Below, piece after piece: positions 40,010 to 62,326 of a stretch of 64,000 nt of DNA. The notes beneath the pieces were generated by a model that saw only the letters and a list, made by a program, of their open reading frames with translations, did no database searches and was not told where the DNA came from. The position numbers and the translations under genes are program-made. The DNA comes from Sphyrna mokarran (taxonomy: Eukaryota), in assembly GCA_024679065.1 (NCBI GenBank), contig JAGIQG010000016.1, positions 2,542,001-2,606,000 on the forward strand, given 5' to 3'. The first letter of the stretch is position 1, and each line of letters begins with the position of its first letter.

Positions 40010-40159
40010 GTAAGTCTACACACACACATCAGTTTGCAAAGACCAACACAGAGGCTTGTGTACAATCATTCCCAGTCTGAGTATTGTGTCCAGTCCTGAC
40101 CACAGTTCCCTTTGGGAAGAATGTCAGGACCTTGGAGAGTGTGCAAAGGGTTACCAGAA

Positions 40160-41290
40160 TTTTGCCTTTGACAAGGTCCTACATGGGAGCTTAGTTAGGA
40201 AGAGTCTGGGTATGCATGGAGAGGTAGTAAATTGGATTAGACATTGGCTCAATGGAAGAAGCCAGTGAGTAATAGTGAAGGATTGCTTCTCTGAGTGGAG
40301 GCCTGTGACTAGTGGGGTGCTACAGGGATCAGTGCTGGGTCCATTTTTATCAATGGTCTGGATGATAATGTGGTAAATTGGATCAGTAAACTTGCTGATG
40401 ATACAAAGATTGGAGGTGTAATGGAACAGTGAGGAAGGTTTTCAAAGCTTGCATGGGGATTTGGTGCAGCTGGAAAAATGGGCTGAAAAATGGCAGATGA
40501 ATGCAGACAAGTGTGAGGTATTTGCACTTTGGACGGACAACCCAAGGTAGAACATACAAGGTAAATGGTAGGACACTGAAGAGTGCAGTAGAACAGAGGG
40601 ATCTGGGAATACAGGTACAGAATTCCCTAAAAGTGGCGTCACAGGTAGATAGGGTCGTAAAGAGTGTTTTTGATACTTTGGCCTTTATGAATCAAAATAT
40701 TGAGTATGAGAGTTGGAATGTTATGGTGAGGTTGTGTAAGACATTAGTGAGGTCGAATTTAGAGTATTGTGTGCAGTTTTGGTCAGCTAATTACAGGAAG
40801 AATATTAATAAGATTGAAAGAGTGCAGAGAAGGTTCACAAGGATGTTGCCGGGACTTGAGAAGCTGCGTTACAGAGAGAGATTGAATAGATTGGGACTTT
40901 ATTCCCTGGAGCGTAGAAGAATGAGGGAAGATTTAATAGAGATGTATAAAATTATGATGGGTATAGATAGTGAATGCAAACAGGCTTTTTCCACTGAGAC
41001 TAAGAAAGAAAAAAAAACCAGAGGACATGGGTTAAGGGAGAAGAGTTTAAATGGAATATTAGGGGGGGATTCTTCACGCAGAGAGTGGTAGGAGTGTGGA
41101 ATGAGTTGCCAGATGAAGTGGTAAATGCGGGTTCACTTTAATCATTTAAGAAAAACGCGTTCATGGATGAGAGGGGTGTGGAGGGATACGGTCCAGGTGC
41201 AGGTCAGTGGGACTAGGCAGAAAAATGGTTCGGCACAGACAAGAAGGGCCAAAAGGCCTGTTTCTGTGCTGTAATTTTTTTATGATTCTA
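40160..41290 (+). mobile_element. CR1 LINE reverse-transcriptase 3' fragment in a BTG intron
   Basis: AFDKV.H, SGV.QGSVLGP, KLADDTK, LEYCVQFW and IERVQRRFTRM. Confidence 0.95.
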
Positions 41291-41783
41291 ATATTCCCAG
41301 GGATGAGGGGGCTTCAGTTCGTGCGGAGACAGGGAGAAGCTGGGATCCTTCCCCTCGGAACACAGAGGTTAAGGGGGAGATTGAATTGAGGAGTTCAGAA
41401 TCATGAGGGGTGGGGTGTTTGGACGGAGTGAATGAGGAGAAAGTGTTTACAGTGACAGGAGGCTCAGTAACCAGAAGGGACACAGATTGAAGAGAATCAG
41501 GAAAAGAACCAGAGAGCAGGGGAGATGGGGAGAATTTTATTTTGGACACACAGTGAGTTGTGATCTGGAAGGTGCTGATTCATTAGGAACTTTCAAAAAG
41601 GGGGAATGGGGTCTGGGTGTCTCTCATCCTGGCGCCCGTGTACATGCTGTGCCATGGTTTGGGGGCCGGGCACACACACACACTCTCGTTCTTAGTGCTG
41701 TGTGTGGTGTTTGTGCAGGAGGCTGTTTTGTCACCACTGTGTCTGAGGTTCACACTAACCTCTGGTTTTCTGAATCGCTGTAG

Positions 41784-41994
41784 GTCTGGAGAGAGCAGTC
41801 AGCCCTTCACCGTGGCTGAGTTTGAACAGGACTCCAGGAAGCTGAGATCACAGGATTCTGAGCCCAGCAGTGAAGTATCATCAGAGTGCAGCACATCTGA
41901 TTACCACTCAGACACCTCGTCAGACGATGACGAACATATCAAAGGACAAGCGACCAAGGAGCCAACGGCAAAAATTGCTGCTGTTCCTCACAAG
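41784..41994 (+). CDS. BTG3/4-like exon: SGESSQPFTVAEFEQ…TSDYHSDTSSDDDE…VPHK
   Basis: TAG acceptor and GTGATT donor; 211 nt, phase 2-0. GE..PFxVAxF and TSDYHSxxSS motifs of BTG3. Confidence 0.9.
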
Positions 41995-42164
41995 GTGATT
42001 GACAGGAATATCGAGTATCTGGACTGGGGGTTAGGGGGGAGGTCAGAGTGAACAAACTCTCAGGATTTAACCTCCAACTGCCCCCATTACTCAGCCCGAA
42101 CTGAGACCCATTCAACCATCTCCACTTGTCACTCACTGACCCCATGCTGACCTCCTGACTCCAG

Positions 42165-43000
42165 CAATCTTATCTCTGTAACCCCCTCCAGCCCCAACAC
42201 TCCTCCCTATCTCTGTAACCCCCTCCAGCCCCAACACTCCTCCCTATCTCTGTAACCCCCTCCAGCCCCAACACTCCTCCCATCTCTGTAACCCCCTCCA
42301 GCCCCAACACCCCTCCCTATCTCTGTAACCCCCTCCACCCCAACACCTCTCCCTATAACAGAACCCCCTCCAGCCCCAATACCCCTCCCTATCCAGTAAC
42401 CCCCTCCGCCCCCAACACCTCTCCTATATCAGTAACCCCCCTCCAGCCCAATACCCCTCCCTATCTCAGTAACCCCCTCCAGCCCCTACACCCCCTCCCT
42501 ATCTCAGTAACCTCCCCCAGTTCCAACACCTCTCCCTATCTCAGTAACCTCCTCCAGCCCCTTCACCCCTTCCTATCTCTGTAACCTTCTCCAAACCCTA
42601 CAACCCTCCTTATCTCAGTACTGTCCTCCAGCCCCAACACCCCTCCCTATCTCAGTAACCCCCTCTGCCCCAACACCTCCCTATCTCTGTAACCTCCTCC
42701 AGCCCCAACACCTCTCCCTATCTCTGAACCTCCTCCAGCCCCTTCACCCCTTCCTATCTCTGTAATCTTCTCCAAACCCTACAACCCTCCTTATCTTGGT
42801 ACTGTCCTCCAGCCCCAACACCACTTCCTATCTCTCTCATCTCCTCCAGCCTCTATACTTTGAAATCTCTGTGAATCCTCCAATTCCGCCTCTTGAACAT
42901 CCCACGATTCCCATTGCTCTGCCGTTGGTGGCCATGCCTTCAGCTGCCTGGGGGGCTCTATGCACTGGAATTCCCTCCCTAAACCTCTCCAACTTTCTCT
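42165..43000 (+). mobile_element. L2-type LINE 3' fragment with internal 37-bp minisatellite
   Basis: Unit ccctatctctgtaacctcctccagccccaacac (PYLCNLLQP) runs into ggtggccatgccttcagctgcc…tggaattccctccc (GG.AFS…WNSLP). Confidence 0.75.
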
Positions 43001-43427
43001 ATCACTTTCATTCTCACTCATTGCTCTGTCTCTCTCTTCCTGGCATTTTAATGCAACATTAATCCAAGACTCTGCCTGCCTTCTTAGGGTGGATGTAAAA
43101 TATCCCACACTCACTATCTGGAAGAAAGGGAGGTGAGGTCTCCCTGGTATCCTGGAACCGATATTTATCCCTCAAACAATATCGCTTAAAAAATGCTCTG
43201 GGCCATTGCTGTTTGTGGGATTTTGCTGTTGCAGAGGTGACTGCTGCATTTTCTACTATTCAGCAGTGATCACATTTCAGATAAATGATTTCATTCATTG
43301 GGAAATCTTTGAGGTAGTGACAGGCACTAGAGGAATGCAGGTCGGAACACAGGGGACTGGGCTGGGAATGAAGGGGAGTTTGTGTGCTTGGAAATGTTGT
43401 TTAGTTGCTTAAATTGATTTTTCTCAG

Positions 43428-43634
43428 GTTTCCGGAAGTTTCTCCTTCCCCGCAGCCACCTGGCCTCCATACCCTCACAAGTTGGTGCCGTACACCACTG
43501 CCTTCTACCAACCTGTGCCCCTGGTCAGTTATTACCTGATACCCAGACCGGACAGTGCATTGCGACCTCCGCCAGGCTTTCTCCTCACTCAGACACAGCC
43601 ACACCGTTCAAAGATGGGCAAAAGGCACAAATGA
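43428..43634 (+). CDS. BTG3/4-like terminal exon, Pro-rich: VSGSFSFPAATWPPYPHK…KMGKRHK*
   Basis: tttttctCAG acceptor; phase 0; open for 68 codons to TGA 43632-34. FP…W.P.P.K resembles the BTG3 tail. Total CDS 729 nt. Confidence 0.8.
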   Translation, partial: VSGSFSFPAATWPPYPHKLVPYTTAFYQPVPLVSYYLIPRPDSALRPPPGFLLTQTQPHRSKMGKRHK

Positions 43635-46490: not shown

Positions 46491-47223
46491 TGACTGCAGT
46501 CAAGATGCCAGACATTGGTTCAATAGGTAGGCTCAGGTTTACAGGGAGAGGGGGGGGCGGGGGGGTGGCGAAGGCTCCTTGTTCAGCTGTAATCACTCCT
46601 ATCTGATCACAGGATCTAAACACTGGGTGTTGTGGATTTACTGATCTTTCCTGAGATTCTGCGAGTGATGAGGGCTTGTGGTCAGCGGGAAGTGATTCTG
46701 ATCTCAATGCCACCTTCAATTACCACAAGGAACTACTGGTGGAGCGATGGGGACTGAGGTGTACACAAAGTGAACTCTCTGTTGTGAATTAATTTAACTC
46801 TAGCCTCAGTGCAGTGAAGACTCAGTGCTGGACAGCCCCATTCCCCAGAAGGTTTTTTTCTCCAGCCATTCCATCCTGATGCTCAGGTGCTGTTGCCCAA
46901 GGCCCCGTGATTCACATTAATAGGTCTCCCCTGTCAAAAGGTCATCATTAGATGGTTCATATCGATCGATCGTGAATCTATTTTGATTCCTAGAAGAGAA
47001 CAAACAGCAGAGTTCAGGTTCTGTGAAAAGAATCCAACACTTTGGATAAGTGAGTAAAGGAGCACAGACTCCATTCAACATTCTGGGTACAAACGGCAGC
47101 TGGAAAATGGCTCACAGGAGCTGTATGGTGATGGAGCACAGAATGTAGAGGAGATGAGGCAATGGGTAAGAGCTGGACACTCCACAGGAGCTGTGCTGAC
47201 CCACAGAGAGTCAGAGGATAGAG

Positions 47224-47248
47224 TTAGAGAACCCTGCAATAGTTCCTG
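47224..47248 (-). CDS. Candidate terminal cytoplasmic exon copy 2 (CRNYCRVL*)
   Basis: acccctCAG acceptor; duplicate of copy 1 with the same frame and stop. Confidence 0.45.
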
Positions 47249-47964
47249 CTGAGGGGTATGTGTGGGAAGGATATTAATGAAACAAGGAAGTCCCAATGAC
47301 TAAATCCTCCAAATTCACACTCCCATCTGCCAAATTCTTGTCCACTCACACAACCTATCTACAGCCATCTGCAAACTCCATGTCTTCTCCCCAACAAACT
47401 TTCTTATCTTTGTGACATCTGCAAATTTAGCTACCATGCTTTTGCTCCCCTCATCTAAATCGTTGATATAAATTGTAAAGATTCGAGACTGCGGCACAGA
47501 CATTGGCAGGATGTGGGAAGTGAAATCCCGCAATCAGAAAAAGACCCATTTTACACATATTCTGTTTTCTGTCAGCTGGCTAATATCCAGGCAAATCCTC
47601 GTACCTTTTAAAGATTGTGAGGTTTCTTGCCTGTACTACCCTCCTAGGCAGCACATGCCAGACCCCCACCACCTCTGGGTGAAAGGCATTTTCCTCAAAT
47701 CTCCTCTAAATCTCCTGCTCCTCATCTTAAAGTTATGCCACATGAAAAAAATCCAATACTTTGGATAACTGAGTAAAGGAGCGTTCAGGAACACAGACTC
47801 ATTAAATTCCACTCAACATCCTGGATGCCAATGGCAGCTGGAAAAGGGGTCACAAGAGCTGCATGGTGATGGAGTACAGAGTGTAGAGAAGATGAGGCAA
47901 TGGGCAAGAGCTGGACACTCCATAGGAGCTGTGCTGACCCACAGAAGGAGGTCAGAGAATAGAG

Positions 47965-47995
47965 TTAGAGAACCCTGCAATAGTTCCTGCTGCCA
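47965..47995 (-). CDS. Candidate terminal cytoplasmic exon copy 1 (CGSRNYCRVL*)
   Basis: attcctcgCAG acceptor; phase 2 gives a short tail ending in TAA. Confidence 0.55.
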
Positions 47996-48419
47996 CTGCG
48001 AGGAATGTGTGTGGAGATGGGTGGTGAGCACGGAGATGTGGTTACTGAATGAAAGAAAGAAATCCAACATGGCTTTCCCAATGACTGAATTTTCTGATGT
48101 CTGGATTAAGGGGGAGGTCTGAAAAGTGCAGGAGGAAATGGAATACAACGTACTGCATTTACATAGCACCTTTATAGAAAAACTCAGAAATGCTTCAGGG
48201 AGAGATATCAAAGAATAATCAGAATTTGGACAGGGAGGTTTAGGGAAGGAATTCCAGAATTATTATTTTCTGTTCAGTGTTGCTGGCTAGGCCTGCATTT
48301 ATTGTTCATCCCTAATGGTAATTAAGAGTCAACCATTGCTGTGGGTCTGGAGTCACATGTAGGCTAGACCAAGTAAGGTCAACAGATTTCCTTCCCTAAA
48401 GGAAATATACTATGCTGTG

Positions 48420-48768
48420 AGGCCTGGATAAAGTAGATATGGAGAGACTTATACACTAAAAGGAAAAACTAGAACCAGAGGGCACAACCTCAGGCTAAAT
48501 GGATAATCCTTTAAAACAGAAATGAGAAGGAATTTCTTCAGCCAGAGAGTGGTGAATCTGTGGAACTCTTTGCTACAGAAGGCTGTGGAGATCATTGAGT
48601 GTCTTTAAGACAGAGATAGATAGGTTCTTGATTAATAAGGGGATCAGAGGCTATGGGGAAAAGGTAGAAGAAAGGGGATGAAAAAAATATGAGCCATGAT
48701 TGAATGGCAGAGCAGACTCGATGGGCTGAGTGGCCTAATTCTGTTCCTATGTCATATGGTCTTATGGA
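48420..48768 (+). mobile_element. CR1 LINE 3' fragment
   Basis: ttcttcagccagagagtggtgaatctgtggaactc plus 3' UTR hairpin. Confidence 0.85.
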
Positions 48769-49104
48769 CATTATCCCAAGGCAGCTGAAAGCATAGTGCC
48801 AATGGTGGAGTGATGGGGACTGAGGTGTACACAAAGTGGACAGAATTGGAGTGGAGAGATTTGCAGTTTGGGGATTGGCTCAGTTACAGAGATAAGGAAG
48901 GGGTGAGATTAGAGAGGAATGTGGAAAGTAGAATGGGAAGGTTAGAATTGAATCAGTCAATGAGGTCAGGGGTGATATCAGAATAGTTCAGACTAGAATA
49001 AATAATGTCATTAATGATGGTTTCAGTAGCCCTTGAGCTGAGGCAAAGAGACAAATAGGTGATGTAACAGGGCTGGAAGTACACAGTCTGGGTGATAGAT
49101 ATTG

Positions 49105-50085
49105 ATGATGTGGAGATGCCGGCGTTGGACTGGGGTAAGCATAGTAAGAAGTCTTAACACCAGGTTAAAGTCCAACAGGTTTATTTGGTAGCACAAGCTT
49201 TCAGAGTGTTGCCCCTTCTTCAGGTGAGTAAGGAGTTGTGTTCACAAACAGAGCACATAAATACAAACTCAGTTTACAAGATAACGGTTGGAATGCAAGC
49301 CTTTACAAGTAATCAATTCTTAAATAGATAATGTGAGTGGAGAGAGGGTTGAACACAGGTTAAAGAGTTAGTGGGATTTTGTAAGCCCAGGCTTACAAAA
49401 CTCTATGTACAGTCATAGAGGTCACAGATAGTGTGACACGAACCTAAGATCCTGGTGAGGCCATCCTCATCTGTGTGGAACATGGTTATCAGTCTTTGTT
49501 CAACAACTCTGCGTTGTCGTGTGTCATGAAGCTGGCCTTGGAGAATGCTTACCTGAAGATCAGAGGCCGAAAGCCCATGACCGCTGAAGTGTTCCCTGAC
49601 AGGAAGAGAACACTTCTGTCTGCTGCTTGTCAGTGATAAGCCTTTTTCCTAGGATGGAGAATGCTAGCACGAGGGGACACAGCTTTAAATTAAGGGGTAT
49701 GAGTTATAGGACGGATATCAGAGGTAGGTTCTTTACTCAAAGAGTGATTAGGGAGTGGAATGCCCTGCCTGCAGCTGTTGTAGATGCGCCAAGTTTGGTG
49801 GCGTTTAAGAGGTTAATTGATAAGTATATGGAAGAGAAGGGAATGGTTTAGTTTGGAGGGGCATTGCTTTTTATTTTGGTCGGCACAACATCGAAGGCCG
49901 AAGGGCCTGTTCTGTGCTGTATTGTTCTATGTTCTATGTTCTATGCTGCTTGTCAAATGGTGTCCTTTCATCTGCTGTCATAGTGACTGCATCGTTCGTC
50001 CAACATACCATACTTCAGGACATCCTTTCCTGCAGCGTTTGAGGTAGACAACATTGGCCAAGTTGCAAGAGTATGTACAGTGTAC
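49105..50085 (-). mobile_element. Penelope-like element 3' fragment (GIY-YIG endonuclease plus pLTR)
   Basis: Minus frame YSCNLANVVYLKRCRKGCPEVWYVGRTMQSL matches the PLE GIY-YIG signature; pLTR at about 49105-49230. Confidence 0.85.
49633..49943 (+). mobile_element. 5'-truncated CR1 inserted in a Penelope element, with target-site duplication
   Basis: RGRFFTQRVIREWNALP, (TTCTATG)n tail, and tgctgcttgtca at both 49621-32 and 49944-55. Confidence 0.9.
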
Positions 50086-50588
50086 GTGTACAGTGTAGTG
50101 TACACTGAACATATTGCACTCTCCCCTGATCAAAGTCACAGATATGGATTGTGAATATCTGAGGCTCCAACACTGATCCTTGCAGCACCAGTTACATCCC
50201 ACCAACCAAAAATCACCCATTTGTTCCTCCTCCGTTTCTGTCCATTAACCAATCCTCAATCCATGCTATATTACCTCCCAAACCCCTCACCCTGTATCTT
50301 GTGGAACAACCTGTTGTGTGGCACCTTATCAAATATCTTCTGAAATTCCAGATACATTCCTCATCCACTGGTTTTCCCAGTGGGATAATATTTGCTTCTT
50401 TCCAATCCACGGGGACTGTTCAGCAGTGAGAAGATGACAAGCTGGAAGTGACTGGCTAACACTGCTCAATGAAAGGGTGGATTGAAGCATCCTCACAGCT
50501 CAGTAAATGGACAATTCTAGAGTTCAGCAACATTGAACAAACATTATAAACCAAAAACAGGAAACATTGGAAACATTCCGGAACTCAC

Positions 50589-50691
50589 CATCGCTTTCGG
50601 AATATGTGAACCCCAATTCCAGCAACAACAAAAACAGCAACAAGAATTCCAATTCCCAATCCAACTCTTGTTCCGATAGAGTGTTCACGAC
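50589..50691 (-). CDS. Transmembrane exon (GREHSIGTRVGLGIGILVAVFVVAGIGVHIFRKR)
   Basis: ttctgtctcTAG acceptor and GTGAGT donor; 103 nt, phase 1-2. Hydrophobic helix followed by RKR stop-transfer. Confidence 0.88.
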
Positions 50692-50766
50692 CTAGAGACA
50701 GAATGAAGCCATTAACAGACTGGAACACACTCACAAAACTAACAGCAGAGACTTTCAGCATCGAGT

Positions 50767-51574
50767 GGGCCAGATTCTCCCGTCACAAAGAGCATGTTTT
50801 TTGATGTGTCCAGTTGGGAGATGCATGTTGGCCGTTTCTCCCACAGCCGGAGAGCAGGCGCCATCAGGATAGTACTGGAAACCAGCGGGAAGATAGGTGA
50901 GTGACTTATATCTGTTTTTAATCTTATTTAAATGCTTTTATTGGGCCCAGGCCAGAATTCTCCGAGGGCAATAGCATCTCCCACCGCGCTAGGAGTATTT
51001 CACACCTTTGGGGTTTAGAGTAGCTCCCCACTTGCACAGAAGAGGGGAGAGGAGCAGTAGGGCAATGGGGGAGGGTTGGATACCCTGGCACTACCATTCA
51101 GCAGTGGCAAGAGGACGGATGCTGCGGGGCCATTGGTGGGTATGAGGGGTCCTGCTAGCACTCTGCAGATAGAATCAGTCAGGGCTGGAGGCAGGCTAAC
51201 AATTGGAGTGGAGGGGGAAATTGTTAGTGCTGAGGTGGGAAGGCTGGTGGCTGAAGATTGCAGTGCTCCTGGGTGGGGGAGTCGGCGCTGGCCTGGGAAT
51301 GCTTGTGTGGACCATGGGAGTGATGTCAGGGGCAGCACTGCAAAAATCCTGGGGCTGGTCAGCCTTGACGCATGCACAGAGTTTTGGAACTGTCAGGTCA
51401 GGTGTGAATAGGCCCGCCCCCACCCCGAGCTTTTAATGATAGTCACAACTGTGACCTCTGCATTGCACAGAGCGTGGGGGATTTGAGTCTGGACTCCCAG
51501 TGAAAAAACAATCATGAATCACATCACCTTTCCTGCAAATTCAGCACCTAGAATTTTTTGGGAGAATCAGGCCC
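50767..51574. mobile_element. Non-autonomous DNA transposon (PIF/Harbinger-like MITE)
   Basis: Terminal inverted repeats gggccagattctccc / gggagaatcaggccc (14/15 match). Confidence 0.75.
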
Positions 51575-52302
51575 ACTCTTTCAGAACCATCCCTAATATA
51601 AACAGATTCCTGATTAATTCTAATCCTGGAGGGTCGTGGGAGGTTAGACACCAATAATCATACACATTCACCAGGCCACCCCACAGCTTCTTGCACACAG
51701 ACACTGCTCCATAATGTGATCGATACATGCCTTCCAATAAAGATAACTGGACATTGAACAGCAGCAGCCCCCCTTCAATTCAACCTTACTGCACGCTGAA
51801 ATAGAGGAGGGAGATGGTGAGATAGCCATTTGATTGCTTGGTGAGCTCAATCAATATTACTGATCTTTGATGCAAAATAGTGATAGAGGAGTCTGAGATG
51901 TTGGGTTGATTCTGTGAGTATTACTATGTCACACAACTCTCCCAACTGCGACACCAGTCCCCAGATGTTAGTGAGGGGACTTTGCAATGTTAACCAGGCT
52001 GGGTGTGTCTGTGTTCCCTGATTCGATACCTGGCTCACAGCCAGTGATCCCTTCAGTTTTATTCTGGTTTCTCTGTCTAGTGGTTTAATACAAACTGATT
52101 GAAGTATCTGAGCAAGTCAGAGGGCAGTTAGAAGTCACCCAGGTTAATGTGGTAATGGAGTCACATATAGACCAGATTGGGTAAGGACAACAGGTTTTCT
52201 TTGCTAAAGGGACATTAGTGAACCTGTTTTACAACAATTTTGTGGTAATCTATACATTTCCAGGCCTAATTATTAATTTTGAACTAAATTGAAACCTCTT
52301 AC

Positions 52303-52647
52303 CTGTTACAGAGAGAAGGACAAAATCAGTTTGCTCCTGTTGATATCCTGCACCCGCCTCCTCATAAAACTGACACTGATACTCATTCTGGTCTGACTCC
52401 CTGAGGCTAGAGAGCAGAACTGACCAGTTTCCTTGTTCCAGTTGATCTTTGAACAGTTTTGTTCTGTCTCTGAACCGTGGATCTTGTTCTCTCAAATCAT
52501 CGTTTCCATTTATGTACTTGTGTAAAAATTCACGTTTGGGAGTTCCCCAAGTCACCAGTAAATCTGAGACTGGGACATTCCCTCTGTAGGTACAGGGCAG
52601 CACAACCTGCTCCCCAGGGAACCCAGAAACTGGGTCAGGTAAGAAAT
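52303..52647 (-). CDS. B7/butyrophilin-like IgV exon V3
   Basis: 345 nt, phase 1-1, CAG…GTAAGA. Intact V-set motifs. Confidence 0.92.
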
Positions 52648-53129
52648 CTGGAAAAGATTGTAAGTATTTATCCACAGATATAACCTTCTCTGATACACTG
52701 CAACCCAAGCTTCACATGGTTACACTGCGATGCTTGATTTACAAGAAGCACTGATTAGTACCTCACTGCTTTCATTTCATTAAGTTCAGGAATATTCCAT
52801 TTAGAATGTTCTGCGCACAATTCAGCATTTTTAAGATGGAAACATCTCACCATCAAACTATGAAACAATTAAAACTCAAAATGTTCTTACAAGTCTCTTT
52901 CTCTACAGGATTGTGTGGAATGCTGGATTACACATAGGTAAATATTTCTCTCTACTGATTTCACCCAGTATTACAGCTAATCCCAACAGTTTTTCAACAA
53001 GTTGGTTTGGGTAAAATTTTCCACACACAATTCCAGAAATACTAATGCTAGGGCGAATCAGGAAACCTCAGAGTTCTGCATCTGAGGGACAGGAAGATAA
53101 GAAATAACAATTCCCAGTAGTTTAAGGGC

Positions 53130-53305
53130 CAATTACAGGTATGAGTGACCCACACCACTCACTCTCACACAATCAGTTACAGGTAAGAGTGACCCACACT
53201 ACTCACTCGCACACAATCAGTTACAGGGAACAGTGACCCACACCACTCACTCTCACACAATCAGTTACAGATAACAGTGACCCACACCACTCACTCTCAC
53301 ACAAT
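53130..53305 (+). repeat. About 45-bp tandem repeat, 4 copies
   Basis: gtgacccacaccactcactctcacacaatcagttacagg. Confidence 0.85.
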
Positions 53306-53314
53306 TGTTCTTGG

Positions 53315-53592
53315 GTGGCATAATAGCATAATTGTTAGCACTGCTGCCTCTCAGCGCCAGGGACCTGGGTTCGATTCCCGACTTGGGTCACTGACTGTGT
53401 GAAATATGAACGTTCTCCCCATGACTGCATGGGTTCCCTCCGGGTGCTCCAGTTTCCTCCCACAGTCTGAAAGATGTGCTGGTTAGGTGCATTGACCCGA
53501 ACAGGCACCAGAGTGTGGCAACTAGGGAATTTCACAGTAACTTCATTGAATTGTTAATGTAAGCTTTACTTGTGACAAATAAATAAACTTTA
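53315..53592 (+). mobile_element. tRNA-derived SINE
   Basis: ggttcgattcc B box, core and tail. Confidence 0.88.
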
Positions 53593-53689
53593 CAGCATTT
53601 CAAACCTTCCAATGTTACTTGCTGTCTATCTGGCATGTAATGAGTTTTAAGAGCTGAAAACACATGCAGCAGTTTAGAAACTGATTTAC

Positions 53690-53728
53690 CTGGTTCAGTT
53701 GTGTTCGGTCCAGGTGTAGAAGGTCGCT
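53690..53728 (-). CDS. Pro/Thr-rich linker exon (ERPSTPGPNTTEP)
   Basis: tgttttcttTAG acceptor and GTAAAT donor; 39 nt, phase 1-1. Confidence 0.72.
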
Positions 53729-55117
53729 CTAAAGAAAACATCATGTTTTAGTATTGTGTGCGACACAAACTGTAGAAATGATCAAAGACGCTATCGGGCT
53801 TTAGGGAAAGACATCCAGGGAGGAATGAGACTGGGCTCAAACTGACCAGGAAGGATCAGGAACAGGGTCAGCAGCGTGAAAAGTCTAACGGGATTGCATT
53901 AACTGTGATGGGTAGAATGGAAGTTTTCCAGAGCTCCCCTGAGCAGGATCATTCCCAGCAGTCCACACTCCCATTTTGGAGAGAATCCCCATAGGATCCT
54001 GGGCCCTCTGGGATACACTTTCAAGGTAAGCACAGTGGGTCCGAGAAGTGTTGTGGACTCCACTCCGACATCTGGAGACAGATGGAGCATGTTTCTGGAG
54101 AGTGAGTGCAGCTTGATGGCACCATTAACTCCATTCCTATCCTGAGGGCTCAGCTAGCTCTGTCACTGGGTTATTACCAAGGCAGCCTTAGTGATGACCA
54201 GTGAATTCTCCCTCAGCTGAGCGAGGGCAGTCAGTGATAATCAGCAGGAGATTTTCAGGCTCACATTTGTCCTAAAACTGTGAAACTTCATGGAGTTCAG
54301 AGTCAATGTTGAGGATTCCTGGAGCCACTCCCTCCTGACTGCGTCCCCACCTCTGGTGGGTCTGAGCTGTTAGTGGGACAGGACACACCTAGGGATGATT
54401 TAAAGGAATTTGAGACGTAGGGTTGATTCTGTGAGTATTACTATGTCACACAGCTCTTCCAACCTCGACACCAGTCCCCAGATGTTAGTGAGGGGACTTT
54501 GCAATGTCAACCAGGCTGGATGTGTCTGTGTTTCCTGATTCGATACCTGGCTCACAGCCAGTGATCCCTTCAGTTTTATTCTGGTTTCTCTGTCTAGTGG
54601 TTTAATACAAACTGATTGAAGTGTCTGAGCAAGTCAGAGGGCAGTTAGAAGTCACCCGGGTTAATGTGGGAATGGAGTCACATATAGACCAGACTGGGTA
54701 AGGATGGCGGGTTTCTTTCCCTAACAAGATATTAATGAACCCTGTTGGGGTTTTACAACAATCCAACAGCTTCATGAGCACTTTTATTGGGACCAACTTT
54801 ATCAACAGGATTTTACAGCCTCACTCCAGCAAGACTGAAATTCCTATTCAATGTCAATGGAGATTTCCGTTGTTGAAGCCTCAGCCGCTCCAGTTCTTGG
54901 GCGGGCAAGGTGGTAGAGTTCTGACCTGTATTTCCAGATTTTTATTCAATGAACTGAATTTGAATTCTGAAAATGCGACGGTGGGATTTGAATTCACATT
55001 CTCTGGGATTATTAGTCCAGGTCTCTGGATTACGAGTCTAGTAACGTAACCACTGCATGACTCAACTCATAAAAATCAGAGGTTAAGTACAGAAAACCTG
55101 AAACAGAAATCTCTTAC

Positions 55118-55462
55118 CTGTAACAAAGAGATAGATGAGATGAGTTTGCTCCAGTTGATATCCTGCCTGCGTTCTCTTGTAAATCTTACATTGATAATGC
55201 TTCTGGTCTGACTCCCTGAGGTTAGAAAGCAGAACAGACCAGTTTCCTTGTTCCAGTTGATCTTTGAATAACTTTGTTCTGTTTCTGAACCATGGCTCTT
55301 GCTCTGTCAAATCATCTTTCCCATTGGTGAATTTGTGTAATATCTCAAACTTTGCTGTCCACCAAATCACCATTAAATCTGAGACTGGGACATTTCCTTT
55401 GTAGGTACAGGGCAACACAACCTGTTCCCCAAGGAACCCAAACACTGGGACAGACGAGTCAC
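55118..55462 (-). CDS. B7/butyrophilin-like IgV exon V2
   Basis: 345 nt, phase 1-1, CAG…GTAAGA. Intact V-set Cys/Trp/Cys. Confidence 0.92.
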
Positions 55463-56239
55463 CTGGGAAAAGATTGAAAGTATTTATCCATAGCTATAAC
55501 CTCCCTGCTGGTACATTACATCCCAAGCTTCACATGGTTACACTGCAATGTTTGATTTACAAGAATCACTGATCAGTACCTCACTGCTTTCATTTGTGTG
55601 GGAAAGTTAAAGCTCAAGCATTGAGGGCCTTTAACTAAAACCAGCTTGTGCTGGATATTTGTAAGCACAGAACAGCTGGACAGCACTTTGAATCACATCG
55701 TTTCCATTTGTACACATGCTGAGAGAACACATCAGGATATTGGTCACCTCCCCTTGGGAGAAAAATCACAGACTTGGGGTGGTGGGGGTGGACAATGTGA
55801 GATGGAATGGAGGGCTGAAAATTGACCCTGAAATGTAAAGACAGGAATGGGTGGGGGAGGGGATACCCAAGGATGTGGAATGAGGTTTGGACAGGTTGCG
55901 GGGGACAGCGATGGACGGGTATACTGTACAGGGGATGAGGCAGCACCTGATGGTCTGAAAGGGGTTGAGGCAATGTGGATCCTCATCTCTCTTCACCACT
56001 AACCTGTCAGACCATGCTTCTCCTCCCAATACAGCCAGACTCTGCCCTCTCCCAGGAACCAAAGCTCACGCCCCCCCCAGTCCTGATGATCCCCTAATCC
56101 ATCTGATCCCAGGAGTGTCCCAGACTCACGAGTATACAAGAAATAGAAGCAAGACTCAGCCCTCAGGTACTTCAAGCCTGCTTTGCCATTCAATACTTTC
56201 ACAGTTGATCTATGCCAGCCTCACTTATGTACAAAGTGA

Positions 56240-56690
56240 CCATATTTTAAATCAGTGACTCCTGGTTTTAGATTCTCCTACAAGAGGAAATATCCTCTCC
56301 ACATCTACCCTGTCGATACCTCTCAGCAGCTGAAGAGTTTTGATCAAGTTGCCTCTTATTCTTCTAAATTCCTGTAGATACAAAGCTAACGTCTCCACCC
56401 TTTCCTCATAAGACATCCAGCCCCTTCCTTTATTAGTTTAAACCTTCTCAATACAGTTTCTAACACATTTACATCTTTCCTTAAAAAAGGAGACACTTAC
56501 TATACACCATCCTTTGGATGTGGTCTCACCAATGCCCTACTTAACTGAAGCATAACCTCCCTACTTTATATCAATTCCTCTTACAACAAACAATAACAGT
56601 CTATTAACTTTCCAAATTACTTGTTGTACTTGCATATCTGTCTTTTGTGATTCATGCACTAGGACACCCAGATCCCTCTGCAGGACAACA
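56240..56690 (-). mobile_element. CR1 LINE fragment
   Basis: Reverse complement of the LVRPH…/LEFRR.RG.L segments. Confidence 0.75.
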
Positions 56691-57749
56691 GCTTTTCTTC
56701 CCTCATAGGTCATAGCATCCTTACAGTGCAGAAGTGGAGGCTATTTGGCCCTTGGAGTCTGTACCAACTCTTCAATAGAACACCTTACCCAGGCCCTATC
56801 CTCATAACCTTATACATTTACCCACTAATCCACCCAACCTTCACGTCTGGAGAAACTAAAGGGGCAAGCCCAATCCAATTGTTTTTGCTGGAGTGGGTGG
56901 CAGATCTCATAGAGACTTATAAAATTCTAACTGGACTAGACAGGGTGGATGCAAGGAGGATGTTCCCAATGATGGGGAAGTCAAAAAACAAAGAAAATGA
57001 CAGCATAAGAACAGGTCCTTCGGCCCTCCAAGCTTGCACTGGCAGTCCAAAAGCAGGGGTCACAGGCTGAGGATTCAGAGTAGACCATTTAGGACAAAGA
57101 TGAGGAAACATTTCTTTACCCAGAGAGTAGTGAGCCTGTGGAATTCATTACCACAGCTATTAGTTGATGCCAAAACATTGAATGTATTCAAGAGGTGGCT
57201 TCCCCATCATCGGGAACATCCTCCCTGCTTCTACCCTGTCTAGTCCAGTTAGAATTTTATAAGTCTCTATGAAATCCCCCACCCACTCTAGCAAAAACAA
57301 TTCTAACCTAGTCAATCTCTCCTCATACACCAGTCCCAGAATCAGCCCGGTATCCCCTATGGGTGTCTGTTGCACAATGTTGAAAGTATTAGTGAGCAGT
57401 GGTATGAGGTAGATGGTCCTGGAGGTATTTGTATTTGTAAGTAGCACAGCTCATCTGATGAATTTAGCTCTCTCAGTGTCGTGAACATTTCACTGACCAC
57501 TTGGAAAACAGCAAATGGAGTGCCAGTTCCCCCTGCTGACTGCTGAACTTGTTTGATTTTCTTCTGCTCCTACAGAGACCATAACTGAAACGCAGCAAGC
57601 ATAGTCTCTTCAAATGATGAGCAAAACCAATGCAAATTCCAAGTGTAATTCTGAATAACAATACTGATAGAATGTGCACTTCAAGTGAACCAGTTTGGTA
57701 TGCAGAAAAATGTCTTCCCCATCAGTTTTTTCCATGAGATATTATAATT

Positions 57750-58004
57750 TTAAAGTTTGTTTATTAGTCACAAGTGAGGCTTCCATTAACACTGCAATGA
57801 AATCACTGTGAAATTCCCCTAGCTGCCATACTCTGGCGCCTGTTCAGGTCAATGCACCCTAAACAGCACGTCTTGCAGTCTGTGAAAGGAAACACATGCA
57901 GACATGTGGAGAATGTGCAAACTCCAAATAGACAGTGACCCAAGTCGGGAATTGAACCTGTTCCCTGGTGCTATGAGGCAACAGTGCTAACCATTGTGCC
58001 ACCG
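57750..58004 (-). mobile_element. tRNA-derived SINE
   Basis: Full length, reverse orientation. Confidence 0.85.
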
Positions 58005-58269
58005 TTTATATTCCAAAGTTATTCCTCCACCCCTACAGTTACCAATTGCGAGAAGCCTCCATCTTGCTCTTGCTAAATCGACGTTGACCTTGTTTTTGAC
58101 AATCCATGTAATGTCAGCACCATCTGGGAGCCAGATAATGCAAAACTATCTGAGTGAGAGTCAGTAGTTGAATATTTCCACTGGCAGCCACTGTTCCTTT
58201 ATTCCAGCATTCCTTTAAGCTATTCTGAGTGAGCCATCTCATCATAATAAATTCAAATAATGGAGTCAA

Positions 58270-59410
58270 TGCTCCCAAAAATTGCTGAATTGGTAGGAAA
58301 ACTGGTCCAGATCACAACTGTTTTTTCAGTGCAGCTTGAGAATGAATCTCCCCATTCTGTCCACTGCAGAGGTCACAATCATGAGTCCCATTAAAAACCT
58401 GACCAGGGGCCTATTCACAGCAGAGTCCATTAACTCTGGAATTCTACGTGTGCGCAGCGGCCCTGATCTGTTAGATTCCCCAACTGCTGGTCAGCCCGGG
58501 ACCCCCCCCCCCCCCAGTGCTGCCCTCCCCGCACCCCTGCAGCTCAATCACAGCCCCCACAACAAGTCCCAGGGCAGCCCTGAGCCCCTCCCTCTCCCCA
58601 TCTCAGACCACCCAGATGTCAAGCCCCCCATGGTGGCGATACCTCCACCTCCCCTCAGAGGCAGACCCCCCCCAACAGGAGGCAGACCACCCCCACTCAT
58701 TGCCCCACCTCACCAGGAGGCAGACCCACCCACTCCCTCCCCCTCCCCTCATGGAGTCAGGCCCTCCACTTACCTCATTTCCCCCCCCAAAATTGCTGGC
58801 CTCCCTCCAGTCCAGGCCGATCCCCATGCAGAGTAGCAGCGGGATGCCCCCCCCACTCCCACCAATCATCCCCTAGGACCCACCCAAAATAGGCCCTGCT
58901 CCCTTGGCACTGCCCAATGCCCCATTGTGTCCCCTTGGCATGGACACTTTGCCCCTTGGGCAGTGCCAGGTAGCACAGACTGGTTCTGCCATGGTGCTCA
59001 TGCCCAGGGGACACCACACCCCACCACCCAATCCCTTGGGGATCTCCAATCATCAGCCTGCACTCCAACGGGGTTTCCCATTAGCTCTCCAAATGTGGGG
59101 AGCTAGTCTAATCCCTGTCAGAGTGAAATATTCCTGGCAGAGTGAGGAGGGAATTGTATCAGACTTAGCACAGAACTTGCCGATAATCATATGTAAAACA
59201 GATTTAAAACACATTAAAAACAGATTGAAATCTCTTGTCTCTCTTTCCACCGGTTTTCAGCATGGTCCCGACTACGACTGTTCTCTGGCTCTCAGAGACG
59301 TGCATAGGTCGGGAACTCGTGCGTGAATCCTATGAAATGGCTGGAACATGCATTTCCCGACCTGACACGCCCTGCCAGAAAATTTGCAGGTTGCAATGGA
59401 GAATCGCTCT
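58270..59410. mobile_element. Same MITE family, opposite orientation
   Basis: ctcccaaaa…gctgaattg at the left end and ggagaatcgc at the right end; internal homology to the other copies. Confidence 0.6.
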
Positions 59411-59782
59411 CTGTTTCTCCTTGGCACATCGGATATGGTAGTTGATCTGTCCAATTTAAAACTGGACCCAAATTCTGATCAAAAATATCCATGTCTCACC
59501 TGTCTCTAATCTCCCTGCTTCGTATCTCTCACGAACTAATGGCGAGTACGCAATGAGAAAGGGGCATAGATACATGGCAAGCTCCCCACACCAGCCCATC
59601 GGTTTGGCTTGGCCCAAGGTGGACTCAGGGCTACCAAAGTTAGATCCCTAGTGGCCATATGCCTGTCTCAGGGGCTGGGCATGCAGTCTCCCAACAGGCT
59701 GAGGGAGCACACACACACACACACACACTGGAGACCTTGTGTCCCAGTCTGATTCTTAGTAAACCAGTTGGGGTTTTACAGA

Positions 59783-60082
59783 TGGGCAGCATGATGGCAT
59801 AGTGATTAACACTGCTGCCTCACAGTGCCATGAGTTCAGGTTCAATTCCCAGTTTGGGTTACTGTCTGTGCAGAGTCAGCATATTCTTCCCGTGTCTGTG
59901 TGTTTGCTCCGGTTTCCTCCCAAGTCCAAAGGCGTGCAGGTTAGGTGCATTGGCCAGGCTAAATTCTCCCTCTGTGTACCCGAACAGGCACCAAAGTGTG
60001 GTGACTAGAGAATTTTCACAGTAACTTCATTGCAGTGTTAATGTCAGCCTAATTGTGACACTAATAAATAAACTTTAAACTA
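59783..60082 (+). mobile_element. tRNA-derived SINE
   Basis: Full head, core and tail. Confidence 0.85.
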
Positions 60083-60479
60083 AACAATCCAACAGCTTCA
60101 TAGCTACTTTTATTGGGACCAACTTTATATTTCCAGATTTTTATTTAATAAATTGAATTTAAATTCTGAAAGTGCTGTATGGGATTTAAAACAGAAATGA
60201 GGAGGAATTACTTCACTCAGAGGGCCCCACAGTACAGTGGACACCACAACACGAAACAGATTTCAGGAGATCAATAGGTTTTTGATTAGTAACGGGATGA
60301 AAGGTAATGGAGAATGGACATGAAGGTGCAGGTTAAGTGCCATGGTGGGATTTGAACTCACATTCTCAGGATTATTAGTCCAGATCTCTGGATTTCTAGT
60401 CTAGTAACATAACCACTGCATGACTGAACCCATAAAATGATTGATTAAATGCATAAAACCTGAAACAGAAACTTCTCAC

Positions 60480-60821
60480 CTGTTACAGAGAGATAGATGT
60501 GACAACTCTTCTCCCAATGATATCCTGCACTCGTCCTCTTGTAGATCCGACACCGATACTCACCCTGGTCTGACTTTCTGATGTCAGAGAGCAGAACTGA
60601 CCAGTTTCCTTGTTCCAGTTGAGCTTCGAACAGCTTTGTTCTGTTTCTGAACCGTGGTTCTTGTCCTGTCAACTTGCCTCCATGGATAAACTCATGCATA
60701 ATTTCAAAGATCGATGTGCTCCAGATTACTAGTAAATCTGAGACTGGGACATTCCCTTTGTAGGTACAGGGCAGCACAACCTGCTCCCCAAGGAACCCAG
60801 AAACTGGCACAAGCAAATCAC
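60480..60821 (-). CDS. B7/butyrophilin-like IgV exon V1
   Basis: 342 nt, phase 1-1, CAG…GTGAGA. VVLPC, W, FRNRTKLF..QLEQGNWSVLL..DQGEYRC. Confidence 0.92.
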
Positions 60822-61015
60822 CTGGAAACATTTGAAAGTATTTATCCACAGATATATATGCTATGTTACATCCCAAGCCTGCTCTTCCCTCCAATACAAC
60901 CAGACTCTGCTCCCTCCTAGGATCCAAAGTCCACTCTCCAGTTCTGATGGCCTTACTCCCCATGCTCCTAAAACATTCCCAACTCAATTTGATACCAAGA
61001 CTATCTGAGAATTCT

Positions 61016-61236
61016 AAGTAAGAAGTCTCACAATACCAAGTTAAAGTCCAATGGGTTTATTTAGCAGCACAAGCTTTCGGAGTCTTGCTCCTTTATGAGG
61101 TGAGTGAGCTGCTCACCTGATGAAAGAGCAAGCTCCGAAAGCTAGTGCTGCCAAATAAACCCACTGGACTTTAACCTGGTGTTGTAAAACTTCTTACTGT
61201 GCTTACCCCAGTCCAATGCCGACAACTCCACAGCAT
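61016..61236. mobile_element. Penelope-derived inverted pLTR element
   Basis: Same arms; arm length about 85 bp. Confidence 0.85.
61114..61147 (+). ncRNA. Minimal type I hammerhead ribozyme motif (PLE-type)
   Basis: CAC-CUGAUGA-AA-GAGC-AA-GCUC-C-GAAA-GC-UA-GUG: intact core, stem II, palindromic AGCU in place of stem III, and CAC/GUG helix I. Confidence 0.6.
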
Positions 61237-61569
61237 GAGAATCCTGATCCCAGAGCTCAGGACCCCATCACAGACCCATTGAATCCCATCCTAATTCTAC
61301 TTCGATCCTGGTGTCACCCAGGCACCCATCCCAGTGTCACCGAGTGTTGTTCAGTGTCCAGATCCCACTGTTCACATCACAGGGATTAATGTGAAGACAT
61401 AACTGTCTTCATTTCAGTTCTCATTATCATTGTGTGTGATGTGCTGCTACTGTGTTCACTCCTTCAATGGTTCCACTTGCAATTCATACAGCACCTTAAA
61501 GCAAGATATATTCCTGATCCCCCCACCGTTTAATCAGTGCTGAAATGTTCCAGCAATCACAGCTCTTAC

Positions 61570-61633
61570 CTGAAACACCAGCAACAACACTCAGCAGCAG
61601 CAGCAGCAGAACTAGTTTGTGGAAGTTGTGTTC
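61570..61633 (-). CDS. B7-like gene, signal peptide exon (EHNFHKLVLLLLLLSVVAGVS)
   Basis: ttttcttgttgCAG acceptor and GTAAGA donor; 64 nt, phase 0-1. Poly-Leu h-region and small-residue cleavage site. Confidence 0.88.
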
Positions 61634-61800
61634 CTGCAACAAGAAAACTTAGTGACTCCATTTACAACAGATTCACTGCAGGGATGGGGGCTGTGGATGG
61701 GACTTCACAGCAGCTAATAGTCAGGGAATCAAATCCTGGTGAAGATGAAGTTTTCCCAAGATACCCCCTTTCTCCCCCAGCACTGAGACACTAACAGTAC

Positions 61801-61821
61801 CTGCAACTCCTTTCCATCCAT
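61801..61821 (-). CDS. B7-like gene, candidate start exon copy B (MDGKELQ)
   Basis: ctttatcCAG|gggcATGGATGGAAAGGAGTTGCAG|GTACTG: a 25-nt exon (61801-61825) with both splice sites; phase 0. Confidence 0.55.
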
Positions 61822-61844
61822 GCCCCTGGATAAAGAGTTAAATC

Positions 61845-62220
61845 ATGGAATCGCTACACTGCAGATGGAAGCCATTCAGCCCATCAAGTCTGCACCAATT
61901 CTCTGACAGGGCTCCAAGCTTCATTTCTTTAACCCCATGTATTTATCTTACTAGTCCCCTAAACCTACACATCTTGGGACACCAAGGGGCAATTTAGCAT
62001 GGCCAATCCACCTAACCCGCACATCTTTGGACACCAAGGGACAATTTATAATGGCCAATTAACCTAACCTGCACGTCTTTGGGATGTGGGAGGAAACCGG
62101 AGCACTCGGAGGAATACCATGCAGATGTGGGAAGAAAATGCAAATTCCATACAGTGACCTGAGCCCTGAATTTAACCTGGTTCCGCGGCGCTGTCAGCCA
62201 GTGTTTAACACCAAGCCACC
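61845..62220 (-). mobile_element. tRNA-derived SINE between the two MDGKELQ exons
   Basis: Reverse core with a duplicated aaggggcaattta unit. Confidence 0.8.
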
Positions 62221-62305
62221 ATTCTGCACTGATTGGGGATGAGGATGAAGGAGAGTTTCCCCCAGATACCGCCCCTTCCCCCCAGCTCTGAGACACTGAC
62301 AGTAC

Positions 62306-62326
62306 CTGCAGCTCCTTTCCATCCAT
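62306..62326 (-). CDS. B7-like gene, candidate start exon copy A (MDGKELQ)
   Basis: ATGGATGGAAAGGAGCTGCAG|GTACTG; phase 0, in frame with the leader exon. Confidence 0.45.

Follow-up and report, generated by a model that had tools for sequence, protein, structure and literature searches.

A predicted Sphyrna mokarran gene with three tandem B7-type V domains and no C domain, and its relatives in a clustered shark family

Background

The IgC domain is a defining feature of the B7 family, whose ligands contact their partners via the GFCC' face; B7-H4 (VTCN1) and CD276 are conserved single-copy genes with an IgC, and MOG is distinguished by a second hydrophobic segment. Among other immunoglobulin-superfamily proteins, CEACAM-like decoys offer a precedent for family members that soak up pathogens. 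PD-L1/L2 are described with a V-C layout (PMC12151841) and CD276 as having added domains by tandem exon duplication (PMC3172298). Chicken BG genes encode C-less V-TM proteins and form a tandem array that includes hybrid genes and expands and contracts quickly, and a chicken butyrophilin-like protein has been described as a retrovirus receptor (PMC4046983). Fishes further possess clustered modular Ig families, such as MDIR (skate), CD300, NITR and DICP (PMC3031540, bioRxiv 2021.06.11.448072); ITIM and charged-TM motifs are given as defining such paired-receptor families in the latter source.

Here we analyze a window (the whole 64,000-nucleotide stretch under study) from Sphyrna mokarran, in which a B7/butyrophilin-like gene of three tandem IgV exons had been predicted, and compare this gene, hereafter the V gene, with these systems.

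Results and Discussion

Exon organization of the V gene

The exons upstream of the cytoplasmic tail are:

62306..62326, minus strand: first coding exon L1 (leader part 1, with the ATG), GT donor, phase 0
61801..61821, minus strand: duplicate of the first coding exon, a possible alternative start, in a block ~90% identical to 62254-62332
61570..61633, minus strand: leader exon 2 (L2), hydrophobic signal peptide, phase 0-1, single copy in the window
60480..60821, minus strand: IgV exon V1, phase 1-1, one additional Cys in the G strand
55118..55462, minus strand: IgV exon V2, phase 1-1, Pfam V-set, structure model available
53690..53728, minus strand: linker exon, 39 nt, Pro/Thr-rich, phase 1-1, homologous to the family stalk exon
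52303..52647, minus strand: IgV exon V3, phase 1-1, Pfam V-set
50589..50691, minus strand: TM exon, phase 1-2, single copy in the window, basic stop-transfer

From leader to TM, each exon (L1, L2, V1, V2, linker, V3, TM) is intact and GT-AG bounded: all have GT donors and, apart from L1, where the coding sequence starts, AG acceptors. Phase 1-1 applies to the V and linker exons, as originally claimed, and their junctions are free of stops. The V1-V3 ORFs score 36.7-38.4 bits with Pfam V-set (cut-off 26), and a V profile run on the whole window, translated in six frames as 1,580 pieces, recovered V1-V3 only (E<1e-68), the next piece having E=0.63. Neither a C-set, a B30.2 nor an additional Ig exon was found at the V gene: when the open exons of phase 1-1 and 60-450 nt lying between TM and L2 were listed, none besides V1-V3 was both Ig-sized and flanked by good acceptor and donor sites, and the second Ig-like module of the family was not in the window (best E=0.23, 1,580 pieces). 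Pfam, profile and exon listing agree with the prediction of three tandem IgV exons with neither IgC nor B30.2. Two additional ORFs, 57163-57450 and 47816-48259, lacked a Pfam match and were set aside, and an Rfam scan of the window came up empty (0 matches). A search of the window for another leader-2, linker or TM exon was negative, which speaks against three separate genes.

A clustered family of C-less V proteins in sharks

The relatives of the V gene constitute a clustered family under many annotation names in 12 shark species. In a candidate search 53 of 84 sequences matched, all of them from sharks, and the 76 matches of a profile search comprised 73 named shark proteins, one unnamed protein and two weak teleost matches; no ray or chimaera protein was among the 53 + 76 matches of these searches, which require shared 5-residue words, and the exhaustive search covered the best 150 matches. 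Family members of a species lie mostly on a single sequence record, and a quick tree unites the V domains of sharks in a single branch (SH-aLRT 97), with copies gained rapidly within lineages. The RefSeq proteins show that the basic unit of the cluster is leader-V-(stalk)-TM-tail. The V gene resembles its Mustelus relatives, with 83% identity to the Mustelus leader in leader exon 2, 87% to the Mustelus TM in the TM exon, and a 76% match to the Mustelus N-terminus in the in-frame stretch 62392-62306 upstream of L1.

The other gene of the window relevant to the cluster is:

37835..43634, plus strand: BTG3-like neighbour gene at the cluster edge, in tail-to-tail orientation to the V gene, four coding exons

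The two genes are 3.3 kb apart in the window. As an indirect linkage test, in Mustelus, Heterodontus and S. canicula BTG3-like genes were found on records equal in length to those bearing members of the cluster, suggesting that this neighbour is common to the shark clusters; the V gene is the member on the BTG3-like side of its shark tandem cluster. The search with the BTG3-like protein did return a BTG3-like ray protein.

Among 100 family proteins (isoforms included), 64 have one V, 34 two and two have three, and none of the 100 has a C domain. The gene beside BTG in Mustelus has two V domains. Three-V models are found in Heterodontus francisci (XP_067874619.1, XP_067874620.1), and a clade uniting their V domains with those of the window was rejected (AU p=0.0035; 35/89 V domains), so that three-V forms arose at least twice. 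The original prediction of a lineage-specific all-V protein seems accordingly to hold for the three V domains of this gene, and fails for the absence of IgC, which is the rule of the family across the 12 species and is also seen in all-V tandems of bony fishes.

These counts also bear on whether only one or two of the V exons are used, the three-V form being rare or absent or one V being a recent passenger. With 98 of the 100 family proteins having one or two V domains, and the Mustelus gene next to BTG having two, such usage would be unexceptional; moreover, the identity of the leader and first V of the Heterodontus three-V model with protein P0041 raises the suspicion that this model reads through from a one-V gene into a two-V gene. 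We nevertheless regard this possibility as rather unlikely, given that V1, V2 and V3 all retain strong splice sites, both Cys, the Trp and the DxxxYxC motif, that their sites off the predicted front face are conserved (9-14% differences), and that the window has a single leader-2 and a single TM exon.

Combinatorial splicing of the V exons, also originally proposed, is permitted by exon phase and mirrored by V-skipping RefSeq isoform pairs of relatives (XP_043539184/185, XP_067874636/637, XP_060708631/632, XP_060708490-492/493), albeit RefSeq isoforms from near-identical tandem genes are possible mapping chimeras, P0041 sitting under two genes. By analogy with these isoforms, skipping of phase 1-1 exons would produce products with a different outermost V and a different reach.

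The cytoplasmic tail and the signalling potential of the product

The 3' end of the gene involves the following features:

47224..47248, minus strand: tail exon of the original prediction, with an acceptor-like site; the block 47024-47251 is duplicated at 47743-47992
46917..46989, minus strand: last coding exon, short cytoplasmic tail, with the stop at the same site as in five Mustelus proteins
46822..46893, minus strand: remnant of the PEHQ-containing C-terminal motif of the family, out of frame in the 3' UTR, 91% identity over 23 aa

Nothing equivalent to the 8-residue tail that stops at 47224 occurs in 129 family proteins, and the duplicate of this tail exon at 47965-48044 was likewise rejected for want of family support. 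A profile of the family tail instead selects just one of 2,372 pieces, namely 46917-46989 (E=1.1e-4), which is probably the final exon and would place the end of the gene at 46917, beyond the limit first proposed. With this exon the predicted product is a single-pass membrane protein of 443 aa whose ectodomain has three IgV domains of B7 type and lacks IgC, and whose polar tail is short (27 residues) and devoid of heptads. The remnant of the C-terminal motif sits directly behind the exon, with the motif itself at 46825-46893, after the stop and a frame change, and loss of the in-frame motif is common to the five Mustelus proteins. Lacking the conserved end motif of the family, the product probably displays rather than signals.

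A paired-type signalling receptor, activating or inhibitory (NITR, DICP, MDIR/CD300-like), would be in keeping with a clustered multigene family of modular Ig domains, some members of which carry a second, divergent Ig-fold module. We consider it very improbable because of the lack of ITIM/ITAM motifs and of a charged TM residue, and the receptor half of the original "receptor or ligand" proposal is correspondingly disfavored. None of the 129 family proteins has a cytoplasmic ITIM, ITIM-like hexamers occurring only in TM or V sequence; the conserved tail of most members is tyrosine-free; and the TM segment of the V gene is uncharged, Gly-rich and of the GxxxG type.

Affinities of the V domains

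The top single-domain PDB sequence match of the V domains is VTCN1/B7-H4 (64.8 bits), followed, per domain, by MOG, PD-L1, CD276 and BTNs. Profiles of the family match CD276, VTCN1 and PD-L1 and, more weakly, SCN4B, MXRA8, JAML and MOG. The structure model of V2 (pLDDT 94.7) retrieves the B7-H4 IgV at the first rank in Foldseek (E 1e-11, TM 0.84, identity only ~31%), and the ESM Atlas offers generic V-set clusters only. From sequence and model together, the B7-H4 IgV is the nearest solved domain; a tree built without named B7 proteins, its outgroups being mostly unnamed fish sequences, sets the shark V domains apart on a long branch. Like B7 family members, the product is a type I TM protein with a short tail devoid of tyrosine signalling motifs. 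The membrane-proximal IgC of that family is absent at the V gene, and those family proteins that have a TM leave no room for a C domain between V and TM. The Pfam V-set, PDB, profile and Foldseek matches, together with the absent C exon, thus bear out the designation B7-like and all-V.

We tentatively favor, with the chances a little short of even, a non-signalling cell-surface B7-like ligand for a lymphocyte receptor as the product of the V gene; each of its three V domains would then recognize a different variant of a partner. The V-stalk-TM layout, the GxxxG-type TM and the weaker profile matches to SCN4B, MXRA8, JAML and MOG could alternatively point to a non-immune homophilic or heterophilic adhesion molecule (MPZ/SCN-beta/MOG-like) acting in tissue self-recognition. 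This appears quite improbable, since B7-H4, CD276 and PD-L1 outscore those matches, and large, fast-diversifying tandem clusters such as this one are more typical of immune genes.

Duplication and divergence of the V exons

The V exons were accompanied in duplication by their intron flanks:

51884..52238, no strand assigned: duplicated intron flank 3' of V3, copy at 54401-54762 3' of V2, unique part 96% identical
52648..52777, no strand assigned: duplicated intron flank 5' of V3, copy at 55463-55595, 90% identical
60083..60479, no strand assigned: intron flank on the 3' side of V1, collinear in patches with 54757-55117 (three blocks, 84-96% identical)

Over the intervals originally reported, identity is 92.5% (51900-52240 with 54420-54760), 89.8% (52650-52780 with 55465-55595) and 74.6% (60085-60475 with 54760-55115). 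Within the first flank, 51884-52118 is unique to the V3/V2 pair and 52119-52238 is an interspersed repeat with three further copies in the window. The collinear flanks support tandem exon duplication, and suggest that unequal crossover would have duplicated a V exon with its flanks twice; monophyly of V1-V3 receives p-AU 0.49 in the quick tree (35/89 unique shark V domains). The claim that the duplication was recent suits the introns (4-10% diverged) and does not suit the V exons, which are 78-80% identical in nucleotides and 63-72% in amino acids.

Across 52 non-redundant V domains, variability is greatest at CC' (2.2 bits) and FG (2.4 bits), compared with 0.4-0.9 bits in the A, B, BC, C, C'-D, D-E and EF segments. 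At front-face sites, a set chosen after the family entropy had been seen, amino-acid-changing differences between V exons amount to 19/79, 30/80 and 22/81, as against 22/223, 1/23 and 39/457 in the intron flanks (p=0.0035, 0.0016 and 1e-5), i.e. the predicted binding face has a divergence ~three times or more that of the flanking introns. This excess suggests diversifying selection on the front face, the GFCC' face of each V copy having outpaced neutral DNA in divergence after the duplication. Over whole exons, dN/dS ranges from 0.36 to 0.93, staying below 1. Four-fold sites of V2/V3 differ at 7/33 vs 9/219 in the unique flank (p=0.002), and gene conversion from other paralogues could alternatively have left the exons more diverged than their flanks.

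Front-face diversification, together with the fast gain of copies per lineage and the loss of the conserved tail motif here and in the five Mustelus proteins, is also what would be expected of a pathogen-binding decoy or escape variant, a tail-truncated multi-V member that, without signalling or trafficking, soaks up a microbe exploiting V domains of this family for entry or adhesion, for which the chicken butyrophilin-like protein described as a retrovirus receptor is a precedent (PMC4046983). We view this main rival to the lymphocyte ligand as somewhat unlikely: the full conserved C-terminal tail is kept in 76 of 129 family proteins, pointing to a host function, and a diversified host receptor explains the diversification equally well.

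Implications

By itself the three-V layout is a modest curiosity, because RefSeq relatives have one to three V domains and the all-V arrays of bony fishes are longer. The larger point is the family, i.e. shark-wide clustered C-less B7-like proteins with conflicting names and a predicted binding face that changes fast; the literature searched, which did not extend to key subscription papers, contained no report on this family. If its members are lymphocyte ligands, they would be a shark counterpart of the chicken BG or mammalian BTNL/Skint arrays and a concrete ligand set for comparative immunologists. A bolder proposal, which we hold to be unlikely though worth stating, is that sharks, the oldest animals with adaptive immunity, have an undescribed BG/BTNL-like set of multigene C-less B7 ligands that select or regulate a diversified lymphocyte receptor, with diversifying selection acting on the GFCC' faces and skipping of the phase 1-1 V and stalk exons setting valence and reach. 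Candidate receptors under this proposal include a gamma-delta or NAR-type TCR or an NK-type V receptor, and, if true, it would supply a testable ligand family for unconventional T/NK cells.

Comparison with known systems

B7-H4/VTCN1 and CD276 are the best sequence and fold matches of the V domains and share with the V gene product a type I membrane topology and a short tail; CD276 further resembles it in domain gain via tandem exon duplication (PMC3172298). Unlike them, the family of the V gene has no IgC, one to three V domains per gene and a large diversifying cluster. Chicken BG proteins are likewise C-less V-TM proteins in a tandem array, but have one V, disulfide-linked dimers, long heptad tails and MHC linkage, whereas the V gene has three V domains, a 27-residue tail without heptads and a BTG3-like neighbour. 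The V-only ectodomain is shared with BG and MOG, in contrast to which the V gene has three V domains, one TM and a short polar tail. It also differs from butyrophilin/BTNL proteins in having neither cytoplasmic heptads nor B30.2, a domain found in no family protein or Pfam listing.

The fish MDIR, CD300, NITR and DICP clusters include activating and inhibitory forms, MDIRs resembling CD300/TREM/pIgR (PMC3031540, bioRxiv 2021.06.11.448072), while the V gene has B7-type V domains and no signalling motif. All-V tandem B7/BTN-like proteins of bony fishes (Sparus XP_030266406.1, with 8 V + TM; Astyanax KAG9274456.1; Atractosteus MBN3317043.1; and, among the matches listed, an unnamed representative with up to 11 V) resemble it in directly repeated V-set domains without C, some of them being possibly fused gene models. 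They are distant (<=69 bits per domain vs >115 within sharks), their V domains fall outside the shark branch, and their tails are unrelated. Closest of all is the shark RefSeq cluster annotated as "CD276 antigen homolog", "MOG-like", "SCN4B-like" and "BTNL2-like", automatic names that contradict one another; it has homologous leader, V, stalk, TM and tail exons with 59-76% identity and the same BTG3-like neighbour. The nearest Mustelus proteins are V-V-TM with the tail truncated as in the V gene, and the arrangement V-V-linker-V with a truncated tail was seen in 0 of the 100 family proteins examined.

Structure of the gene and its 3' end

The gene of the original prediction is real, with its 3' end corrected. 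The leader, V1, V2, linker, V3 and TM exons are intact as claimed, with canonical splice sites and an open frame across the joined exons, and the V exons pass Pfam V-set.

Coding exons of the gene and the neighbouring BTG gene
62306-62326, minus: first leader coding exon (L1), canonical splice site
61570-61633, minus: second leader exon (L2), canonical splice sites
60480-60821, minus: IgV exon V1, canonical splice sites, phase 1-1, passes Pfam V-set
55118-55462, minus: IgV exon V2, canonical splice sites, phase 1-1, passes Pfam V-set
53690-53728, minus: linker exon, canonical splice sites, phase 1-1
52303-52647, minus: IgV exon V3, canonical splice sites, phase 1-1, passes Pfam V-set
50589-50691, minus: TM exon, canonical splice sites
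37835-43634, plus: BTG gene, matches shark 'BTG3-like' proteins

V2 is modelled with confidence (pLDDT 94.7) as a V-type sandwich, and a V profile run against 1,580 six-frame pieces of the window matched these three V exons only. The listed open phase 1-1 exons of 60-450 nt from TM to leader include no further credible Ig-sized exon, in agreement with the claimed absence of a C-set exon. A second leader-2, linker or TM exon was sought in the window and not found, which favours one gene over three.

The 8-residue tail exon first proposed is unlikely to be correct, as no protein among 129 of the family ends in a comparable way. When 2,372 pieces were scored with a profile built from family tails, the single one picked out was the exon 46917-46989 (E=1.1e-4). 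With this last exon the predicted product is 443 aa long; its ectodomain carries six N-glycosylation sequons, its tail has 27 residues, and its stop position is common to five Mustelus proteins. The family's conserved C-terminal motif lies at 46825-46893, downstream of a stop and a frame change; this tail end, kept by 76 of the 129 proteins, is lost here. In most members the alignment shows a strongly conserved Tyr-free C-terminal segment with PEHQ and an acidic dileucine-like ending, which may serve in sorting or in binding a scaffold.

A clustered family of C-less proteins in sharks

The gene is a three-V variant within a shark family of C-less B7-like proteins. In a V2 search 53 of 84 candidates match, all from sharks at 59-75% identity, and the family profile retrieves 76 proteins, of which 73 are named and from sharks, one is unnamed and two are weak matches in teleosts. 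The family occurs in 12 shark species of five orders and is clustered, as within a species most members are on one record. The names assigned automatically to its members disagree (CD276 homolog, MOG-like, SCN4B-like, BTNL2-like, ICOSL-like and others). Among 100 family proteins, isoforms included, a single V is seen in 64, two in 34 and three in two, and a C domain separates V from TM in none of them. The two with three V, from Heterodontus francisci (XP_067874619.1 and XP_067874620.1), have a leader and first V identical to those of a one-V gene and may therefore be read-through models.

The family is modular rather than purely V, since in some members (P0113-P0117 and P0035, from Hemiscyllium, Cetorhinus, S. 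canicula and Rhincodon) a Cys-containing module of ~90 residues replaces or precedes the V, with leader, TM and tail shared. This module has no Pfam match and is absent from the window; the S. canicula version is predicted to be a nine-strand sandwich, with a model that resembles Ig folds in general (best Z 10.0, for TREM2 and CD48, with many near-ties).

V-skipping RefSeq isoform pairs occur in C. plagiosum (XP_043539184/185), Heterodontus (XP_067874636/637) and Hemiscyllium (XP_060708631/632, XP_060708490-492/493), and a linker-skipping pair in Carcharodon (XP_041032656/657); being predictions in near-identical gene arrays, these are leads only. That just one or two of the three intact V exons are in use appears improbable.

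The family is database-annotated and apparently undescribed. No account of this cluster was found in the open-access literature searched, although an earlier description may exist; the accessible portions of PMC4046983, PMC3172298, PMC12151841, PMC12227049, PMC3964593, PMC10751288, PMC3031540 and bioRxiv 2021.06.11.448072 do not describe it.

Fold and front-face divergence of the V domains

The predicted B7-like affinity is upheld by the closest solved domains in sequence (B7-H4, CD276, PD-L1 and MOG); the closest by fold is the B7-H4 IgV (E 1e-11, TM 0.84, 31% identity). A non-immune adhesion molecule with such domains would be a distinctly improbable reading.

The most variable parts of 52 non-redundant shark V domains are the CC' loop and FG hairpin; B7 ligands bind receptors through the CC'/FG-bearing face. 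Between the V exons of the gene, 24-38% (19/79, 30/80, 22/81) of the amino-acid-changing sites differ in this front face, whose boundaries were set after the entropy pattern was known, against 9-14% outside it and 4-10% in the collinear introns. Front face and collinear introns differ at p=0.0035, 0.0016 and 1e-5 for the three V pairs, the V1/V3 collinear flank comprising 23 bases only. The pattern would fit diversifying selection on this face, against which the whole-exon dN/dS of 0.36-0.93 counts. Silent sites of V2/V3, too, have diverged further than the unique flank (7/33 versus 9/219), so gene conversion from other paralogues may contribute. A pathogen decoy displaying such variable faces is conceivable, if unlikely.

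Duplications in and around the gene

The three flank duplications reported originally are genuine (92.5%, 89.8% and 74.6% identity), the first pair being partly interspersed repeat. The unique intron block 51900-52118/54417-54635, at 96% identity between the V2 and V3 units, is the most similar portion of the whole duplicated unit. Conversion may explain this similarity, or a conserved element, e.g. a short terminal exon for a secreted form; acceptor-like sites with early stops behind them occur there. Local copies of ~90% identity in the last intron (47024-47251/47743-47992) and around the first coding exon (61749-61827/62254-62332) show repeated small duplications at both gene ends. A tandem array of a 43-base unit (62850-63700) lies immediately upstream of the first coding exon. 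In the V3-linker intron, a short exon-like piece (52910-52938, plus) with a pyrimidine-rich acceptor and GT donor may be due to chance.

Neighbouring genes and phylogeny

BTG3-like genes are on records equal in length to those of cluster members in Mustelus (149,741), Heterodontus (44,089,062) and S. canicula (165,189,515). Mustelus XP_078061843.1, on the BTG3-like record, has a V-V-TM layout and a tail truncated in the same way, and is likely the positional counterpart of our gene. An exon-like ORF adjoining an assembly gap (26530-26721, minus; no Pfam match) has 78% identity to the N-terminus of the Cetorhinus family model P0004, which suggests that its gene neighbours the cluster there too. 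Fused RefSeq models (P0128 and P0054) combine a family gene with a PRDM7-like gene in Cetorhinus and with a retroviral-envelope-like fragment in Mustelus, hinting at other neighbours. Human BTG3 is on the same chromosome as runx1 and DONSON, making an ancestral region shared by the shark cluster and the bowfin NITR/CD276-like region a lead. In bowfin, NITR genes and a CD276-like gene are reported to be intermingled in the vicinity of runx1 and DONSON (bioRxiv 2021.06.11.448072).

A quick tree of 101 rows unites the shark V domains on a single long branch relative to 12 non-shark outgroup domains (SH-aLRT 97). A 35-row tree places V1-V3 near Mustelus, with branching order unsettled. The AU test does not reject V1-V3 as monophyletic (p-AU 0.49) but does reject placing them in one clade with the three-V domains of Heterodontus (p-AU 0.0035), and therefore three-V forms arose at least twice. 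The all-V design is real, but less unusual than first supposed: outside sharks, the matches listed in an exhaustive search include many proteins whose V-set domains are directly repeated (Sparus, eight V and a TM; Astyanax, three; up to 11 in an unnamed representative), so this tandem architecture is not peculiar to our gene. The diversifying family, more than the three-V layout, is the part worth pursuing.

Possible function and relation to known systems

None of the 129 family proteins has a cytoplasmic ITIM-like motif, and the TM of our gene lacks charged residues. Taken with the lost tail end, these features lead us to favour, tentatively and at somewhat short of even chances, a displayed, non-signalling B7-like ligand; a paired signalling receptor is very improbable. 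What the sequences show directly is the exon layout, the family membership, the BTG neighbour and the pattern of variation, whereas expression, splicing, selection, binding partner and function are inferred. V1, V2 and V3 would each offer such a ligand another binding variant, and exon skipping would alter the reach of its ectodomain. The proposed mode of action resembles that of B7/BG-type ligands, but strict membership fails for each known group: our gene lacks the IgC of B7, the heptads and B30.2 of butyrophilins and the signalling motifs of MDIR/NITR/DICP, and differs from BG/MOG in having three V and a short tail.
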